64,000 bases of DNA, from the UHGV virus genome UHGV-0247568; one strand, given 5' to 3'. Position 1 is the first letter of the stretch, and every line of letters begins with the position of its first letter. This document shows positions 702 to 46,964 of this stretch, piece by piece. This DNA comes from a virus. Under the pieces are notes generated by a model. It was not told the origin of the DNA and did not search any database. It saw nothing but the letters and a program-made list of their open reading frames with translations. A program made the translations under genes and the position numbers.

Positions 702-857
702 TTATTTACCACCTCCGCTAATATAAAAATATAATTTTATTCAATTATTATATGTTTATATTAGCGGATGAGATGACCAGTCTCATCGGCTAACGTTAAT
801 GGATATAAGGAAAAATCTCAGCCACAATAAAGTAAGCCTCGATTGTAAAATTTTGTA

Positions 858-1745
858 TTATTTTTTAACTTTTTTAATCGCTTGGATGTACTTATATGAG
901 CAAAAATCTTTAGAAATATGTGAAAAATCATCAAAAAATGGTGTATTTTTAACATATTTTCCTTTAAAAAATAGCTCTTTTCTGTCCTCAGTGACTCCTG
1001 CGTTGTGAAAAATCTTATATTTTTCCCAATTTTCAATTGGATCTGTTGCCCAATTGAAGATAAAATCATCAGAAGTTAGCGGTTTATAATTAAATAGAAC
1101 CATATTCCAGCACTGAGACCACATTTCTGCTGTCCAAATTTGTAAATTTGTATCAATTGTTGCAAAATAACGCCAGAGTTTATTAGAATCGTGATAAACT
1201 TTTTCCCAGAACTCTTTTTTTGGCTTATTTACTAAAACTTGTGCTCCTAGGTGCAGTCCTAGGTGCTCGTTCAGCTGATCTTCTGATATTCCTATAATGT
1301 CTAACATTTTATTTGCAATATGAGGACCATTTTCGCAACCTTTTATATAATCTAAAGAAAGATAACCAGAACAATCTGAACCGATCCATTCATTATCTTT
1401 TAATTGAGGAATATTTGGCATTTCTCTAAAGATAACATCAGAATCAATATAAAGAAATTGTTCTTTTTCCATTTCTGGATTCTCTTCTAAAAATTTCCAC
1501 CATAAATATGGTCGAATAGAAGAGATATATCCTTTATATTCTCTATTATCTTCATATCGATAAATAGAAATGTGAGGATATTTTTGTTTTAACCTTTCAG
1601 AAATTGAAGGGTCAAAACTAGCAAATAATACATAAATATCTTTAATATTATGCTCTAATAAATTTGTGATTGCAACTTCTAATTCCCATTCGAAACGAAC
1701 TATTTCTGGTTGGGCAAATAATACTTTCATTTTTCTAGTTCTCAC
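858..1745 (-). CDS. Hypothetical protein (moron between connector and capsid genes). Has a 'YIDSDVIF' DxD-like motif, so could be a GT-A-like glycosyltransferase.
   Basis: 295-aa ORF, no recognisable structural-protein features. Inserted in otherwise syntenic head module. DxD motif only weak evidence. Confidence 0.4.
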   Translation of the reverse strand: MRTRKMKVLFAQPEIVRFEWELEVAITNLLEHNIKDIYVLFASFDPSISERLKQKYPHISIYRYEDNREYKGYISSIRPYLWWKFLEENPEMEKEQFLYIDSDVIFREMPNIPQLKDNEWIGSDCSGYLSLDYIKGCENGPHIANKMLDIIGISEDQLNEHLGLHLGAQVLVNKPKKEFWEKVYHDSNKLWRYFATIDTNLQIWTAEMWSQCWNMVLFNYKPLTSDDFIFNWATDPIENWEKYKIFHNAGVTEDRKELFFKGKYVKNTPFFDDFSHISKDFCSYKYIQAIKKVKK

Positions 1746-1916
1746 CTTTCAATTTCTAATTTTAACAATAAAAGTGAGCAATATTCTAAATTAACGACCC
1801 GTTGCTCTCGGAGTCTACCATAAATATATATGTAAATTGAAGATGGACGAATTAGCATCCACCTTCAATAGTGAAAAATTATGTTTCATACTCAACCTAC
1901 CAGGACGCCAACACTA

Positions 1917-2053
1917 CCCACCGGGGGTGACGGTGGTAGTTGTTGTAGTCGTCGGTTTAACCGTTGTCGTCGTCGTAGTTGTTGAAGTCGACGTCGTTGT
2001 AGTGGTTGTTGGTTTGACAGTAGTTGTCGTTGTTGTAGTAGGCTGAGTTGTTA
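1917..2053 (-). other. Thr-rich open frame (-1 relative to capsid) directly downstream of capsid stop; candidate programmed -1 frameshift C-terminal extension
   Basis: 46 stop-free codons encoding '...KVTTQPTTTTTTTVKPTTTTTTSTSTTTTTTVKPTTTTTTTVTPGG*'. No start codon. Reached from capsid frame by a -1 slip at the final Lys codon (GCA AAG TAA -> A AAG); two ~30-nt DNA repeats. Confidence 0.4.
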
Positions 2054-3253
2054 CTTTGCTGTTGCCACTACTAAAGCGTTAGGATTGTAAACTTCTCCAT
2101 CCATGTAAGTGTCTAAGATAGATAATTGTCCACCAGCTAAAGCTTGTGTTGTATCTTGTGTTACGTTAATCAAGTTCATACCTTTTTTGATCAACATACC
2201 ATAACCAGCTTGGAAGTTACCAAATACAATTTTATCTGCATTTTCGCCAGTTAAAACATCAGATACGTGTACTGGGCATCCAAATAGAGAATATCCAGGT
2301 TTACCGTCAACTAATCCACGGAAGATTAAGAATGTTCCGTCACCGTCTTTTAATTGCATAACTTTGTTGAACATTGGACGGCTCATTACCCACATAGAAC
2401 CTTCTAAATATCCTGGGTTTAAAGTACCGTAAATGTTCAATAAGTCTGGCACATCGATAGCTTTAGCGACATCAAGAGCTAAAACATTTTTATCGCCAAT
2501 TACTGGACGGAATGCTTCGTCTTCGTTTTCGCCATCTTTAGGTCCAACTAAGATTCCACGTTCAATTGTTTTAGCAACAGAACGAGCTAAGCGACCTTGA
2601 GCATAACTAACAATATCAACACCAGAATCGTTGATCAATTGTTGAGTTAATTGAATTGCTGCACCAACACGTTTTTGGTTAAGTGTTACTGCTTTCAATT
2701 TAGGTTGTAATTTGTTTGCGTCTACAGTTTCACCGATAAAACCTTCGTCAAAGTTACCGTCTTCACGAGCGATTTTCAAATTACCAGTTACAGATGTGAA
2801 TTTACGAGCTGCTTCAAACACAGGTGAAGTTTCGCCTAATAATTCAACAATTTCATTGTGAATTTGTGTAGGTACTAAAAATTCTCCTAATGGATTTGCG
2901 TTGTTCGCAGTTGTATTTTCACTGTTAGAGTAAGCAATATCACGTAATTCTTCCCCTTCACGACGACGTAAGAATTGTTCCATGCCGCGTAATTCGACTT
3001 CTTTTGTAATTTCTTTTTCCATCTTTGTTTCTCCTCCGATTGTTTCGACATCTGCATCAGCTAATGAACGAACTTCTTTAATTTGTTTGATAGACGCATC
3101 TAAATCTGCGACTTCGCTTTTAATTTCTGAAATACGACTTAATTCACTTTCATCAAAAGCACGAGTTTCTGCTTCAACTTTATCAGCAACTTCGCTCATT
3201 TCTTGAACTAATGCGTTGCGTTTTTCCAACATTGCTTTTAAATTAATTTCCAT
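2051..3253 (-). CDS. Major capsid protein (HK97 fold) with N-terminal coiled-coil delta/scaffold-like domain
   Basis: 400 aa. N-terminal ~110 aa highly charged helical region followed by capsid-like body. Gene order protease-capsid. Confidence 0.75.
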   Translation of the reverse strand: MEINLKAMLEKRNALVQEMSEVADKVEAETRAFDESELSRISEIKSEVADLDASIKQIKEVRSLADADVETIGGETKMEKEITKEVELRGMEQFLRRREGEELRDIAYSNSENTTANNANPLGEFLVPTQIHNEIVELLGETSPVFEAARKFTSVTGNLKIAREDGNFDEGFIGETVDANKLQPKLKAVTLNQKRVGAAIQLTQQLINDSGVDIVSYAQGRLARSVAKTIERGILVGPKDGENEDEAFRPVIGDKNVLALDVAKAIDVPDLLNIYGTLNPGYLEGSMWVMSRPMFNKVMQLKDGDGTFLIFRGLVDGKPGYSLFGCPVHVSDVLTGENADKIVFGNFQAGYGMLIKKGMNLINVTQDTTQALAGGQLSILDTYMDGEVYNPNALVVATAK

Positions 3254-4421
3254 TCTCTGGAACCTCCATAATTTTATTATTTTCTAACCAAGCTCTAACT
3301 TCTGCTTGTACATCAGGCTTTTTCGTGGTTGTTGTCGTTGTTTCTGGCTCAGCTGCTGTTTCCGCTTTACCTTCTTCAACTTTCGTTTCGTCAACTGGTG
3401 TTTCTTCCGCTTTTTGTTCAGTTTCGTCAACACGAGTTTCTTCACTCGGTTCTTCAACTTTAGCCTCAGCTTTAGGCTCACCATTTTCGTCCTCAACAAC
3501 GGCTTTTGTACCGTCTTCAGTTTTTTCAACTTTAGCTTTTTCTTCAGTAACAGGTTCTTCAACCTTTTCTTCAGTTACTTTTTCTTCAACAGTTGGTGTT
3601 GGTTCAGTTGGTTGGGCTGGTGCTGCAGCAGCTGCTGTGGGGTCCATTGGTGGAACTTGTGCGCTTGCAACTTGTGAAACTTGTTCCATTACCTGTTTCG
3701 CCATTTCCAATCCATCAAATGCGGACTTATCTACAATTTCTTGTAATAATTTATTTGTGTCAGCTTGATTCATTGCTAAAGTTGAAATAGCATCATACAA
3801 CATTTTTGGTGTTACTTCCATATTGTCTGTATTCAAACCATTTCCTCCTATAAGAGCTCTAAACTCCAAATCATTCGGAATTTCAACGTCAGCTACTTCC
3901 ATACCACGTGCCTCCAATAAAGTAGTTGGATATGCGGGAGTTTTTAGTGCTGAAACTTCAAATAGTTCAATTTCACTAATAGTTCGAAGTGGCATTCCGT
4001 CTGCAGCTAAAGACCAATCTTCATTTAATACTTTCATACCAAAAGAAAGACCTTTAATAATTCCGTCTTTTACTAATACATATAAGTCTCGTCCGTAACT
4101 TGTTGGAGACACAGTTGCTTCAAAATAGAGGCCAACTTCGTCTTCTTCCAATTTTAACGAGCCATTTGCAGTAGATGCTAAAATCTTTTTAGTATCATGA
4201 TCGGCAAGTAAATCGATACTTTCTTTTAAGCGTTTTGCTTTTGCAATTGCATTTCTGAAAGTTCCTGGAGCAATTACTTCTCTCCATTTTTTCTTACCTT
4301 CTTTACCAAGGATGTGACTAGATGCGTCAGTTGCTACATATCCTTGCAATTTCATTTCTTTCGACTCTTCATCAACATCATTGATGTTCAAATCAAGAGC
4401 ACGAACTTCAATTCCATCCAC
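3243..4421 (-). CDS. Prohead maturation protease (HK97 S78 family) with long Glu/Lys/Thr-rich C-terminal (scaffold-like) extension
   Basis: Motifs 'LLADHDTKKILAS' and 'IKGLSFGMKV' match catalytic His/Ser regions of HK97-type prohead proteases. Located between portal and capsid. Confidence 0.7.
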   Translation of the reverse strand: MDGIEVRALDLNINDVDEESKEMKLQGYVATDASSHILGKEGKKKWREVIAPGTFRNAIAKAKRLKESIDLLADHDTKKILASTANGSLKLEEDEVGLYFEATVSPTSYGRDLYVLVKDGIIKGLSFGMKVLNEDWSLAADGMPLRTISEIELFEVSALKTPAYPTTLLEARGMEVADVEIPNDLEFRALIGGNGLNTDNMEVTPKMLYDAISTLAMNQADTNKLLQEIVDKSAFDGLEMAKQVMEQVSQVASAQVPPMDPTAAAAAPAQPTEPTPTVEEKVTEEKVEEPVTEEKAKVEKTEDGTKAVVEDENGEPKAEAKVEEPSEETRVDETEQKAEETPVDETKVEEGKAETAAEPETTTTTTKKPDVQAEVRAWLENNKIMEVPENGN

Positions 4422-7455: not shown

Positions 7456-7493
7456 AAGTAAACCTCCAATTAGATAGCTTTTATTAAGCTAAA

Positions 7494-7565
7494 CAGGTCG
7501 TAGAAGATTCGAACTCCTATCACTTGGGTTGGAGCCAAGTATGTTGCCAATTACACCAACAACCT
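7494..7565 (-). tRNA. tRNA-Trp (anticodon CCA)
   Basis: Minus-strand sequence AGGTTGT-TG-GTGT...ACAT-A-CTTGG-CTCCAAC-CCAAG-TGAT-AGGAG-TTCGAAT-CTTCT-ACGACCT folds as a cloverleaf. 7-bp acceptor stem (one GU), anticodon loop CU-CCA-AC, canonical TTCGAAT T-loop. No encoded CCA. Confidence 0.6.
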
Positions 7566-7815
7566 ATGTGAAACTAAAAAGTTTCACTAAAAAAAGAAAA
7601 AAAGGAAGTTATGACTAGAAAAGTAGAAAGTAGAAAGGTGTTCAGAGAACACAATGATAGCCAATCGGAATCGCACCGATTCAAAAAGGCTTGTCAACCT
7701 TAATGTCTACTAAGAAGCTACCGCATTTAATGTTCCACCTTTAAAGGCAGTGGGACACCTATTTTAAAGTTCCACATTTATGGTAGTGGGTTACCATATG
7801 TCTCAATTGCTGATA

Positions 7816-44350: not shown

Positions 44351-45409
44351 ATGGAAATTTTATTATTGAATGTCGCAAATAACATTACGGATTTTCGAAC
44401 AGTGTCAAGTGGGGAAACAGTTTATCTAAAACAAATGTTAGAACAGTTAGGCCATGGAGTTACAATTGCTTCAAATAAAAACGGTGAATATGCAGTTGCA
44501 TTTGAGGAAATTGAGGATATTAACAATTTTGACAAAGTGGTTGTTTTACCTGCTTCACTGAATTTTTTCGGTGGTGTAGAAAACCCAACAATTATTAAAA
44601 ATTATAAATTATTAGCAAAATATAATGGAACTATTAATATTTTGCAAACTGACGCACGTTTGCCATTCAAGCAGTTGTGGCCAGCAATTGAGAAGCGTGG
44701 ATGGGGATATAAAAAAGAAGAAGTTTGGATTAATGCCCCAATTAAAGTAATTGCACAATCAAAAAATTTAGATGAAGTTAAAACACAATATGAAAAAGAA
44801 ATTTTCAATGATATTGAGTTTACACATTTTCCAATTGAGCGCTATGCTGGCATTGTGGCGTTAATGAATCCAATCGATGAAGTCGAAGAAAAAGAACACG
44901 ATTTAGTTTATTATGGTTCATTCCGTGGAGGCAATCGTGCTGCTAAAATGGCAGAATTTTTATGTGGAAACATTGTAGAAAAATTAGATGTCCACGTATT
45001 TGGAACAATTCGAGAAAAACAATTAGCTAAAAGTAGTGAAGGTCCATTTCCTTCGTTTGGTAAAAAGATGAAAATGAATGAAATTAGACAAGAGGTTAGC
45101 AAAAGTTTCTCAACTTTAATTATTGGTGAAAAATTTTATAATAATGCAATGTTGACAGTGAGGGTTTGGGAAACATTAAGTAGCGATGCGGTAGTTCTCA
45201 TTGACAACGATTTTGACTCTTACCATAATTTATTTCCTAATTCGCCATGGCGGTATGTTGAAAAAGAAGAAGATCTTATCGAAGTAGTAAAATCTCTTAA
45301 AGATGACGAAAATAAGAGAAAATTAGCGATTCAAGAGCAAAAAGAAGTGTTAGAAAAAATGATTGATTCTTCTCAATGGTTAAGAGATTTTGAAAATATT
45401 TTAGCTTAA
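44351..45409 (+). CDS. DNA beta-glucosyltransferase (T4 BGT-like)
   Basis: 352 aa; T4 BGT is 351 aa. N-terminus 'LLLNVANNITDFRTVSSGETVYL', 'NFFGG', 'DARLPFKQLWP', 'GSFRGGNRAAKMAEFL', 'LTVRVWETLSSDAVVLIDNDFD' parallel T4 BGT 'AIINMGNNVINFKTVPSSETIYL', 'NFFGG', 'DIRLPFSQSWP', 'LRVWETMASDAVMLIDEEFD'; T4 sequence from memory. Confidence 0.6.
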   Translation: MEILLLNVANNITDFRTVSSGETVYLKQMLEQLGHGVTIASNKNGEYAVAFEEIEDINNFDKVVVLPASLNFFGGVENPTIIKNYKLLAKYNGTINILQTDARLPFKQLWPAIEKRGWGYKKEEVWINAPIKVIAQSKNLDEVKTQYEKEIFNDIEFTHFPIERYAGIVALMNPIDEVEEKEHDLVYYGSFRGGNRAAKMAEFLCGNIVEKLDVHVFGTIREKQLAKSSEGPFPSFGKKMKMNEIRQEVSKSFSTLIIGEKFYNNAMLTVRVWETLSSDAVVLIDNDFDSYHNLFPNSPWRYVEKEEDLIEVVKSLKDDENKRKLAIQEQKEVLEKMIDSSQWLRDFENILA

Positions 45410-45480: not shown

Positions 45481-46005
45481 ATGACAGTTCAGTTTAAAGC
45501 GAAAGGACATGAAGATAACATTATTCACTTATATTCAGATGGTGGTTGTCGGTCAACTGCTAAAAAAGGTGAAACTATAAAAGAAACAGATAAAAGTGCT
45601 TATGCATTCTTCTTAAAACAAGGTGGAAATGAAAAATTAGATGGGAAAGCAAGCTATGGAAAAACAAATAACAATCAAGAAATTATGGGATTATTAATGG
45701 GTTTACGTGCTATTAAACGCCCAGAATTTCCAGTTGTTGCATATTTAGATTCGGCTTATGTTGTTAATTGTTTACAAGCTGGTTGGTGGAAGAAGTGGAA
45801 AGCTAATGGATGGACGAAAAAAGGTGGATTAGCAAATGCTAAAGAATGGAAAGAATTAATTGAAGAATTAGAACGTTTTCCATTTTTTAGAATTGAAAAA
45901 GTTAAAGGACACAGTGGTTTCGCAGATTATAACGATTTAGTTGATAAACACTTAAATAAATTAATGGATGAATTACCTGAAATTGGAAAGGGAAATGTTT
46001 TATGA
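45481..46005 (+). CDS. Ribonuclease H (type 1)
   Basis: 'LYSDGGCR', 'NNQEIMGLLMGL', 'AYLDSAYVVN', 'KVKGHSG...YNDLVD' RNase HI catalytic motifs. Confidence 0.75.
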   Translation: MTVQFKAKGHEDNIIHLYSDGGCRSTAKKGETIKETDKSAYAFFLKQGGNEKLDGKASYGKTNNNQEIMGLLMGLRAIKRPEFPVVAYLDSAYVVNCLQAGWWKKWKANGWTKKGGLANAKEWKELIEELERFPFFRIEKVKGHSGFADYNDLVDKHLNKLMDELPEIGKGNVL

Positions 46006-46964
46006 TATATTATGGAGAGCCATATTTTGAATTATTTTCATATGAGGCGACTGATAAAGCAAGAAATGACACTTGTAAAATATTAAACTCCATGGGGTAT
46101 TCACCTTTAAAATTATCTTGTTTTTCAGGCGTGAACATTGAGAAAGCTGATGAAGAATTAGCCAACATTGAGGAAAATGACATAATTCTCTTACAATATC
46201 CAACTTACAGTGGAGCAGATTATGAAAAGAGATTAATTGAAATTTCTCATAAGAAAAAAGCAAAAATTGGCGCAATTGTTCACGATCTAGAATCTATAAG
46301 ATTCTATGGAAATGATAGTGACATTGAGATTTTAAATGGCTTTGATATTATTTCACTTCCCTCCATGGAGATGTATAAAAAACTCTTAAAACAAGGACTA
46401 AAAACAAAAGTAAAGATACAATTGATTTGGGATTTTCTCGCCATGGATAATCAACAGTGGTATGACACAAATTCGGACATTGTCTTTGCAGGTAATTTAA
46501 CAATGGAAAAGAGTAAATGGATAATGGATGTAGATTTTCCTATGTTAGTATATGGAGACAATATCAATAATTTAACTTTTAATGATGGTGTAAAATATTG
46601 TGGTAAAAAACATGACTCAGATTTAGTGAAAGAAATTGGTGGACAAATTGGATTATTATGGGAAGAAGGATTATATAAAAATTATTTAAAATATAATTTA
46701 TCATTTAAGCCTTCTTTATATCTTGCGGCAAATTGTCCAATTATTGTTCCAGCTAAAACACATATCGGAAATATTGTTGAAACATATAAAATAGGTGTAA
46801 CTGTTAAAAATATTGAAAGACAAACAATGTTAGATGCTGTTATTAAATTAAAAGATAATTTGAATTTTTATCAAGAGCGCGTCTCAACATTTGGAGAAAC
46901 AATTAGAAATGGGCAAAATATGAAAACGTTAGTTGAAAGCATGGTGAGAGAAATTGAAAATTGA
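46002..46964 (+). CDS. Hypothetical protein; possible second (GT-B-like) glycosyltransferase in the DNA-modification block
   Basis: 320 aa, no clear motif match; inference from context only. Confidence 0.3.
   Translation: MIYYGEPYFELFSYEATDKARNDTCKILNSMGYSPLKLSCFSGVNIEKADEELANIEENDIILLQYPTYSGADYEKRLIEISHKKKAKIGAIVHDLESIRFYGNDSDIEILNGFDIISLPSMEMYKKLLKQGLKTKVKIQLIWDFLAMDNQQWYDTNSDIVFAGNLTMEKSKWIMDVDFPMLVYGDNINNLTFNDGVKYCGKKHDSDLVKEIGGQIGLLWEEGLYKNYLKYNLSFKPSLYLAANCPIIVPAKTHIGNIVETYKIGVTVKNIERQTMLDAVIKLKDNLNFYQERVSTFGETIRNGQNMKTLVESMVREIEN

Follow-up and report, generated by a model that had tools for sequence, protein, structure and literature searches.

The analysed stretch (UHGV-0247568, 64,000 nt, called the window throughout) carries the structural genes discussed here on its minus strand, and this work concerns the 3' end of its major capsid protein gene, a threonine-rich extension proposed to be added to the capsid protein by -1 ribosomal frameshifting, a predicted RNA helix that encloses the extension, and the adjacent gene of a predicted glycosyltransferase. 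By megablast, positions 800-3300 matched the Enterococcus phages nattely (98%) and vB_EfaS_140 (96%), then vipetofem, VFW, vB_EfKM29 and VPE25 (~93%), with the Denvervirus phages 9183, TJE4 and Planchet at ~77% identity confined to the capsid gene; the source phage is lytic, infects Enterococcus and belongs to the genus Vipetofemvirus (Andrewesvirinae; nattely/VPE25 group). The capsid gene (3253-2051, minus, stop codon TAA at 2053-2051) encodes a 400-amino-acid (aa) protein of HK97 fold (PF05065, Phage_capsid, E 5.6e-42; TIGR01554, E 9e-60) that shares 98-100% identity with its counterparts in nattely, vB_EfaS_140, VPE25 and vipetofem. It is followed on the same strand by a nominally intergenic stretch of 320 nt and then by the gene of a 290-aa protein (1730-858, minus); public records hold no coding-strand annotation from the capsid stop to this gene.

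The capsid open reading frame (ORF) ends ...GCA ACA GCA AAG TAA, with AAG at 2056-2054. The -1 frame at this end reads AAA GTA ACA ACT CAG CCT followed by (ACN)n, translated as VTTQPTTTTTTTVKPTTTTTTSTSTTTTTTTVKPTTTTTTTVTPGG, and closes with TAG at 1916-1914. The extension (2054-1914, minus) comprises 46 codons plus the TAG, contains 31 Thr and 2 Ser residues and has an unmodified mass of 4.6 kDa. An initial annotation of this DNA had described the same gene end and 46-codon frame, both of which were confirmed from the sequence; its codon count for the tail peptide was correct, and the peptide string it gave was one Thr short in the third run. It had likewise noted that the stretch has no start codon, and none of ATG, GTG, TTG, CTG or ATH was found in the -1 frame from the upstream stop (2081-2079) to the TAG. 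Given this lack of start codons, near-cognates included, and the -1-frame stop at 2081-2079, the frame can be entered only within the last 8 capsid codons (2078-2054). The predicted transframe peptide of the window phage reads ...VVATAK followed by VTTQPTTTTTTTVK, and its VPE25 counterpart reads VTPQPTTTTTTTVK. The extension stretch is also richer in GC than its flanks (0.45-0.56 vs 0.26-0.39), as had been annotated. The two DNA repeats of about 30 nt that had been reported with it were not recovered: Tandem Repeats Finder called no array in the stretch, and a repeat search returned only a 3-nt-periodic (ACN)n family at 60-72% identity, the repetition lying instead at the peptide level in two VKP(T)6-7 units.

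The proposed shift site, A_GCA_AAG (2060-2054, minus), is followed directly by the 0-frame stop and is identical in 7/7 Vipetofemvirus genomes and in L101 (L-numbers denote loci of relatives sampled for comparison). It departs from the canonical heptamer X_XXY_YYZ in that the A-site half, A_AAG, re-pairs after a -1 slip and GCA, shifted onto AGC, cannot; A_AAG does have the form Z_ZZN, given as the minimal requirement in PMC5009743. Transcriptional slippage was considered and rejected, the longest homopolymer at the site being AAA in the window and CCCC/AAAA in Denvervirus. An Rfam scan of positions 1700-2200 gave no meaningful match, only a chance snoRNA hit at E 0.74.

Substitutions among the 7 Vipetofemvirus genomes fell where a translated -1 frame would tolerate them. 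Of 22 variable columns in the extension, 19 were at -1-frame position 3 (binomial P 4e-7); these 19 changes were synonymous, all in four-fold codons, and the other 3 were nonsynonymous. Read in the 0 frame, these third positions become second positions, where a change is always non-synonymous. Insertions and deletions in the extension of these genomes measured 9 and 3 nt, multiples of 3. The substitution pattern indicates that the -1 frame is under purifying selection and is coding rather than a remnant. Scattered stops in the -1 frame of relatives, which the initial annotation had proposed to look for, were absent: neither a stop nor an indel of other than 3n nucleotides occurred in this frame in the 19 loci examined.

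Relatives were gathered from a phage collection, from IMG/VR, and by protein search combined with contig look-up, the last of which supplied most of the locus diversity; a metagenome contig scan with the capsid alignment yielded one near-identical locus only, and IMG/VR yielded 4 loci. In the poly-Thr lineages sampled, the tail, of the form V-x-P-(T)n, always occupied the -1 frame of the capsid gene, and a slippery sequence lay precisely at the junction. Vipetofemvirus and L102 carry GCA AAG followed by TAA or TAG. Denvervirus 9183, Planchet and L012 (capsid identity 79%) carry GCC CCA AAA G(G/C)G TAG, from which the -1 frame reads PK(R/S)VEPTTTT...AEG*. A poly-Thr tail in the -1 frame also follows C_CCA_AAA GCG TAG in L104 (68%) and L105 (64%), A_AAA_AAA GCG TAG in L106 (60%), and A_AAA_AAC in L112 (60%) and L113 (59%). 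At L109 (53%) the site is A_AAA_AAA and the -1 frame reads a Big_2 domain, and at L108 the sequence A_AAA_AAA TAG leads into a short non-Thr tail; the capsid genes of L111 and of Staphylococcus Sextaecvirus have no extension. A stop stands directly 3' of the shift codon in the window (TAA), in L102 (TAG) and also in L108, and is not required in that position, since one codon separates heptamer and stop in most relatives. The site of the window looks like the C_CCA_AAA GCG UAG cassette less three nucleotides (CCAAA[AGC]GTAG to CCAAAGTAG) and with a C-to-G change.

The most informative of these loci was L102, whose capsid is 85% identical to that of the window and whose gene end, GCT TCA GCA AAG TAG, has the same type of site. 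Its -1 ORF of 142 codons comprises poly-Thr (1-44) and a complete Big_2 domain (45-124; E 2.7e-12, above the Pfam threshold). The ORF placed here by the gene caller begins at an internal Met at about residue 58, the only internal ATG, and so cuts the Big_2 domain. Because initiation there would truncate it, this folded, selected domain is reachable only via a -1 shift at A_AAG plus stop.

Two loci with other arrangements were recorded. At L110 (3030-3290) the capsid gene (57% identity) closes with ACT CCC TAA TGA, after which the +1 frame contains an ORF of ~80 codons (NDAGEEESG...KLLVSEIKAELDNRGIDYEG...) that looks SAP/HeH-like by eye; this is a candidate CCC-stop +1 shift as in Listeria phage PSA, and the glycosyltransferase gene does not follow. 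At L018 (2440-2500, Lactococcus prophage bIL285) the sequence NDKTTTTTTRHD* lies in frame after the capsid stop, just before the glycosyltransferase homolog, and may represent a readthrough tail, a remnant, or a problem in the sequencing or the annotation.

Downstream of the slip site, a 13-bp helix with 2 G-U pairs was predicted in both the minimum free energy (MFE) and centroid folds (z = -4.6). Its 5' arm (ACUCAGCCUACUA, 2048-2036, minus) starts after a 5-nt spacer from the G of A_AAG, and its 3' arm (UGGUAGGUUGAGU, 1902-1890, minus) lies 12-26 nt past the stop of the extension. The loop is the whole extension ORF, and the element is long-range, as opposed to a local hairpin or pseudoknot. 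When AAG occupies the A site, the first helix pair would be ~12 nt from the first P-site base, at the mRNA entrance. The window duplex (-27.6 kcal/mol) was matched by 0/300 shuffles, and in vB_EfKM29 one helix pair has changed from G-U to G-C. L102 apart, the MFE folds of all poly-Thr lineages contained a helix of this kind, with arms of differing sequence, the 5' arm beginning 1-7 nt after the slip site and the 3' arm 3-53 nt after the tail stop. In Denvervirus and L104 it pairs GCCAAC(..)ACUAC with GUAGUU..GUUGGC, in L105 and L112 UAGUCCCGAC with GUCGGGAGUA, and in L113 UCCCAAC with GUUGGGA. A duplex search at L102 found CUCAGCC-UAC/GUA-AGGCUGAG across a loop of ~400 nt, its 3' arm being the last codons of the longer ORF. 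In most lineages the duplex energy fell between -16 and -29 kcal/mol, a value that no more than 4/300 shuffles equalled or bettered.

The pairing was assessed in two further ways. An unbiased locus-wide scan compared the 5' arm with all 60-nt windows of each locus in 9 lineages; the post-extension window was the single best partner in 6/9 lineages (0 of 210-1170 as good) and within the top 1-2% in the other 3, and in the window phage the 3' arm region was the best of 1170 windows across 12 kb. In a concatenated-arm alignment of 12 sequences and 4 helix types, 79.5% of cells were paired vs 24-42% with the partner slid by 1-3 columns, a fraction that is inflated because the arms had been located by complementarity, which leaves the locus-wide scan unaffected. 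In this alignment 8 pairs change on both sides (e.g. U-A / A-U / G-C and G-C / C-G), and the covariation score was 0.41 vs at most 0.115 in the slid controls; the observed values were reached by 0/500 shuffles. The long-range helix is regarded as a probable frameshift stimulator.

In three relatives the same pairing touches the downstream gene. The 3' arm (GUCGGGAGUA or GUUGGGAGUC) of L105 (~3190-3225), L112 (~3105-3127) and L113 (~3140-3161) holds the GGGAG Shine-Dalgarno sequence of the glycosyltransferase gene, with its ATG 9-10 nt later. This suggests that at these loci the ribosome-binding site of the enzyme is masked by pairing and that its synthesis is coupled to capsid translation. In the window the corresponding ribosome-binding site lies ~150 nt beyond the 3' arm (100-170 nt in the window and Denvervirus) and would not be masked.

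The 290-aa protein encoded downstream of the extension had a single family match, phrog_4417 ('unknown function', E 1e-112). Its AlphaFold2 (AF2) model was of high confidence (predicted local distance difference test 96.1, predicted template modelling score 0.92), and a Foldseek search against PDB returned 232 matches at E <= 0.001. The top matches (E 3e-10 to 1e-6) were retaining enzymes of the glycosyltransferase A (GT-A) fold, namely WbbM, the UGGT catalytic domain, LgtC, the GT6 enzymes (alpha-3GalT/GTA/GTB), glycogenin and Skp1 GalT. A DxD motif follows a beta strand in the segment FYxDSDVIF, D96 and D98 being invariant and S97 at least 90% conserved across 43 homologs down to 28% identity. 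The protein thus models as a retaining GT-A-fold glycosyltransferase (GT8/GT24/GT6-like), and its fold, DxD motif and poly-Thr synteny (below) make it the candidate enzyme for the poly-Thr tail. The enzyme gene was found by tblastn in 77 phage records, from phages of Enterococcus, Lacticaseibacillus, Lactiplantibacillus plantarum (myoviruses), Lactococcus, Staphylococcus and Clostridium, and genes for relatives occur on 369 IMG/VR stretches.

Poly-Thr tracts accompany this gene closely. In 6/6 annotated loci inspected, the ORF immediately upstream of the enzyme ends in poly-Thr. Of the usable IMG/VR loci, 79/79 have such a tract terminating no more than 500 nt upstream of the gene, compared with a background frequency of 0.06 per 500 nt. 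It forms the C-terminus, in frame, of an ORF of 200-340 aa (capsid or tail tube) in 68 of these 79, ends a small decoration-type protein in 7, and occupies the -1 frame of the capsid gene at the 4 Andrewesvirinae loci. Among members of the capsid family obtained by look-up, the enzyme gene was present in 6/6 poly-Thr lineages and 0/4 lineages without the tail; in Sextaecvirus, where the capsid gene has no extension, it lies among tail-region genes that bear poly-Thr tails of their own. At most enzyme-carrying loci the other major structural protein (capsid or tail tube) bears a poly-Thr tail as well. In nattely, vipetofem and Denvervirus, an in-frame poly-Thr of the TTTTTTKATTTTTTTT type closes the major tail protein (~200 aa), whose gene lies outside the window; the tract was located at 7224-7271 in L019, 7217-7243 in L020 and 7172-7189 in L021 and L022, ~3.2 kb beyond the glycosyltransferase start. 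Lactobacillus phage iLp84 (L014, 1950-2500) has two acceptor-like tails in a row, its capsid ending in frame ...VPTTTTTTTSK* and a separate 126-aa 'major tail protein' with a 60-residue VKP(T)n tail standing directly before the glycosyltransferase, a small protein of the sort that precedes the enzyme in the 7 IMG/VR loci above. The adjoining GT-A gene strengthens the idea, first raised from the Thr-rich composition, that the tail is glycosylated. A literature search for glycosylated virion proteins or poly-Thr tails of Gram-positive phages found nothing relevant.

Taken together, the locus is read as encoding a frameshift-extended capsid protein with a poly-Thr tail and, next to it, the glycosyltransferase that acts on that tail, an account to which a probability of roughly three in four is assigned. 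Its best-supported part is that ribosomes shift -1 at A_AAG to give a C-terminally extended capsid, which is very probable on the comparative sequence evidence; the lysyl-tRNA slip from AAG to AAA postulated by the initial annotation is thereby supported through selection on the -1 frame, the heptamers of relatives and the Big_2 domain of L102. Most ribosomes would stop at the UAA and yield the 400-aa capsid protein. In a fraction of them tRNA-Lys would leave AAG (2056-2054) and re-pair with the overlapping AAA (2057-2055), GUA would be the next codon, and 46 residues would be added, consisting of VTTQP, the VKP(T)n repeats and PGG. A stimulating role of the helix, and possibly of the abutting stop, is favoured with less assurance: the helix would stand at the mRNA entrance of the ribosome when AAG occupies the A site, and ribosomes may pause further at the 0-frame stop adjoining AAG ('shifty stop'). 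A poly-Thr tail displayed on the capsid exterior and O-glycosylated by the adjacent GT-A enzyme is judged slightly better than an even bet. Frameshifting would then ration the capsid subunits that carry the tail, and head and tail might both bear glycans, as in mycobacteriophage Che8, since the major tail protein also ends in poly-Thr. Such a glycan tail may serve as an immune or serum shield, in mucus adherence, in stability, or in masking from host defences. The two capsid products are not addressed in published VPE25 work.

Several points weigh against this account. Because GCA has no -1 re-pairing and a full heptamer is lacking, shift efficiency may be low, and visual inspection of the 20 nt preceding the site showed no Shine-Dalgarno-like stimulator. 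Other frames are also open after the TAA in the window (0 frame, 56 codons; +1 frame, ~34), and the openness of the -1 frame by itself proves nothing, since ACN runs hold few stops and this composition keeps all frames open. The Vipetofemvirus genomes used in the selection test are closely related and provide few independent changes. ACN-rich sequence pairs readily with any G/U-rich stretch, which bears on the helix together with the inflated paired fraction described above. As for the enzyme, searches of Pfam and NCBIfam returned nothing for the 290-aa protein, which places it outside the curated GT families, a PDB sequence-profile search with its family was empty, leaving fold comparison as the means of identification, TM-scores to solved GT-A enzymes are modest (~0.5), and its acceptor was assigned from synteny alone.

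Translation of the extension by frameshifting was weighed against explanations in which it is untranslated or is reached by another route. Were it a decaying remnant, as the initial annotation had allowed, an ancestral in-frame poly-Thr tail would have been cut off by a frameshift mutation and would no longer be translated. Such a fused ancestor is plausible, poly-Thr being in frame with the structural gene in 68/79 other phage loci, ACN runs stay open without selection, and the slip site of the window is degenerate; decay was nonetheless rejected as very improbable on the concentration of 19/22 variable columns at -1-frame position 3 with frame-keeping indels, on the conservation of the out-of-frame layout and its junction slippery sequence down to 59-60% capsid identity, and on the intact -1-frame Big_2 domain of L102. 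Still harder to credit is that the UAA is read through into the 0 frame (QQLSLLQQRQ...), or that a small poly-Thr peptide is initiated independently. The 0 frame does remain open for 56 codons in the window, but it closes 10-22 codons after the capsid stop in Planchet, L012 and L104, it would place the variable sites at second codon positions, and we know of no efficient UAA readthrough in Firmicutes; independent initiation is opposed by the lack of any canonical or near-cognate start in the -1 frame.

Two further alternatives accept the frameshift and differ on what surrounds it. Poly-Thr or Ser/Pro linkers occur without glycans, and the tail could be an unglycosylated spacer or 'hair', with the enzyme acting on cell-wall polymers, phage DNA or another protein. 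The acceptor has been assigned from gene neighbourhood only, the poly-Thr of L102 acts as a linker to an Ig-like domain, and VPE25-type phages glucosylate their own DNA (PMC4999554). Pointing the other way are the 79/79 adjacency across siphoviruses and myoviruses, temperate and lytic, the tracking of poly-Thr presence by the enzyme gene within one capsid family, and the occurrence of protein-directed GT-A enzymes (glycogenin, UGGT, Skp1 GalT) among its nearest structural relatives. The temperate carriers phiFL1A and bIL285 are not known for modified DNA, and the DNA-modification glycosyltransferases form a separate module. In the window that module would be represented by ORFs 44351-45409 and 46002-46964 (plus), of 352 and 320 aa, which have the same lengths and gene order as DNA-modification genes of VPE25 (a T4-like beta-glucosyltransferase and a 'nucleotide sugar synthetase-like' gene, among thymidylate-synthase, dUTPase and kinase genes) and, by length and position only, are most likely the DNA-glucosylation genes; with the 290-aa enzyme this gives the phage likely at least three sugar-transfer enzymes. 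On this balance a bare tail is considered unlikely, though a serious contender. A similar, rather low likelihood is given to the proposal that the long-range helix serves another purpose, such as control of glycosyltransferase translation, mRNA stability or processing. It is favoured by the Shine-Dalgarno sequence contained in the 3' arm of L105, L112 and L113, by the ease with which A/C-rich coding sequence and a G/U-rich untranslated region pair, and by the absence of the usual local hairpin. It does not account for a 5' arm that always lies 1-7 nt past the slip site despite differing slip sites and arms, for the 100-170 nt that separate the 3' arm from the glycosyltransferase ribosome-binding site in the window and Denvervirus, or for the pairing kept by L102 across a 400-nt loop. 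Stimulation of the shift and such a second role are not exclusive, and a dual role is possible.

Extension of capsid proteins by frameshifting is of a known kind, with A2 and T7 10B as examples and PSA and SPP1 for +1 shifts. The +1-recoded Firmicutes siphophages resemble the proposal for the window in that a major structural gene is recoded at its 3' end, beside the stop, with two co-assembling forms, and differ in the direction of the shift (+1, at CCC plus stop) and in extensions that are folded Ig-like/FN3 domains. For the helix, the nearest parallel is found in plant luteoviruses such as barley yellow dwarf virus (BYDV), eukaryotic RNA viruses in which an element by the slip site pairs far downstream over spans of kilobases. 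The proposed window helix differs in spanning 130-400 nt across lineages and in closing exactly around the extension ORF, and to our knowledge a long-distance frameshift stimulator has no precedent in phages.

The closest comparison is Lactobacillus phage A2, for which -1 frameshifts in capsid and tail genes are reported (Garcia 2004 and Rodriguez 2005, as cited in PMC5009743 and PMC7260188). Read from its genome record, the major head gene of A2 ends ACC CCA AAA GCG TAA and its major tail gene GCC CCA AAA GCG TAG, and the -1 frames read PKSV... followed by a Big_2 domain; the cassette C_CCA_AAA GCG TAG of Denvervirus, L104 and L105 is the same base for base, PKSV junction included. In A2, as proposed for the window, an HK97-type capsid gene gives rise to a minority C-terminally extended subunit through a -1 shift at its final codons, and the extension is a surface decoration module. 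The two differ in the site (a heptamer in A2 vs A_GCA_AAG with abutting TAA), in the extension (an 86-residue Big_2 domain vs a 46-residue poly-Thr) and in the RNA element (a local stem-loop vs the proposed long-range helix); A2 has no glycosyltransferase homolog at the corresponding position, and the capsid proteins share only remote similarity (24% over 148 aa).

Slippage at A_AAG after a non-slippery codon has precedents in Bacillus subtilis cdd (A_CGA_AAG) and IS1222 (G_CGA_AAG), and 'shifty stops' (Weiss et al. 1987) are summarised in the same review (PMC5009743). Like these two, the window site combines A_AAG with a preceding codon unable to re-pair, a low-GC Gram-positive host and a position near the end of an ORF; unlike them, it has a stop abutting AAG and no visible Shine-Dalgarno-like stimulator upstream. 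The cdd event is called incidental by the review (PMC5009743), whereas the new frame of the window is conserved and selected. Virion glycosylation has been demonstrated in mycobacteriophage Che8 (Freeman et al. 2023, as summarised in PMC11256854). Che8 and the present clade share phage glycosyltransferases tied to abundant surface proteins, capsid and tail both offering candidate acceptors here. They differ in host phylum, in that glycosylation was shown for Che8 and is deduced here from genes, and in that the window has a single small GT-A gene within the structural module, directly after its presumed substrate, and a dedicated poly-Thr acceptor delivered to the capsid by frameshifting.

Seen across phages, these loci may represent an undescribed two-part virion O-glycosylation module common in Firmicutes phages, composed of the phrog_4417 GT-A enzyme and portable poly-Thr tails, a tentative generalisation given somewhat less than even odds. 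As acceptors it would use the poly-Thr tails borne by capsid, tail-tube and Ig-like decoration proteins, and its hosts would include Enterococcus, Lacticaseibacillus, Lactiplantibacillus, Lactococcus, Staphylococcus/Mammaliicoccus and Clostridium. In the Andrewesvirinae form the tail would be rationed by a helix-stimulated -1 shift, and in some lineages the helix would mask the ribosome-binding site of the enzyme.

The helix and the glycosyltransferase are elements beyond those of the initial annotation. Going by the literature searched, four features appear to be new: recoding in the Andrewesvirinae, unannotated in public records; a degenerate A_AAG-stop site that selection has kept while its sister sites are canonical; a predicted long-range helix with the extension ORF as its loop; and poly-Thr tails tightly linked to an unrecognised, dedicated GT-A family in Firmicutes phages. 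Phages of the VPE25 type are models and therapy candidates for E. faecalis and E. faecium, and their extended capsid and enzyme are unannotated. If the tails are glycosylated, the virions would bear a glycan coat on head and tail, and behaviour in gut mucus could change; in mycobacteriophages a glycan coat alters antibody recognition (PMC11256854, citing Freeman 2023). The rule that a poly-Thr tail is followed by a GT-A gene (79/79 loci) offers a testable handle on virion glycosylation in Gram-positive phages, and the pair is a candidate compact tag-plus-enzyme system for glyco-engineering. The capsid family itself forms a natural series, with one recoding event, four slip sites and a covarying helix, from which the evolution of a frameshift signal, and how weak its sites can become, may be followed.

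Between the extension and the glycosyltransferase gene the window contains a conserved hairpin (1868-1837, minus, the feature running to 1825) of the form UUGAAGGUGGA-N10-UCCAUCUUCAA, then AUUUACAUAUA / AUUUACAUAUAUAUUUAUGG, which stands after the extension and not after the capsid stop. Denvervirus, L102 and L104 likewise have, past the extension, a hairpin followed by (A)TTTACATAT, with stem sequences that differ. A terminator scan of the coding strand called none, this hairpin included, and the hairpin is without a U-tract; it may be a weak terminator, a processing site or promoter context.

The strand opposite the extension carries an open poly-Val ORF of 69 aa (1837-2046, plus), the reverse complement of the poly-Thr stretch. 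In the vipetofem RefSeq record (NC_055834, 7896-8054) its counterpart is annotated as hypothetical protein KNU92_gp130, which, lying over the poly-Thr tail on the opposite strand, is almost certainly spurious. The vB_EfKM29 record is without a glycosyltransferase coding sequence, the underlying DNA being intact. Elsewhere in the structural module, gene and profile searches placed terminase and portal genes at its start, the prohead protease at 4421-3243 and a head-tail adaptor at 701-297 (all minus). The prohead protease/scaffold ORF contains the only other Thr run of the 64-kb window, TTTTTT (3324-3341, minus), 26 residues before its C-terminus in a long acidic low-complexity region rich in Pro, Glu and Lys. 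A single phage-encoded tRNA-Trp (CCA) lies at 7493-7566 (minus), just upstream of the terminase gene.

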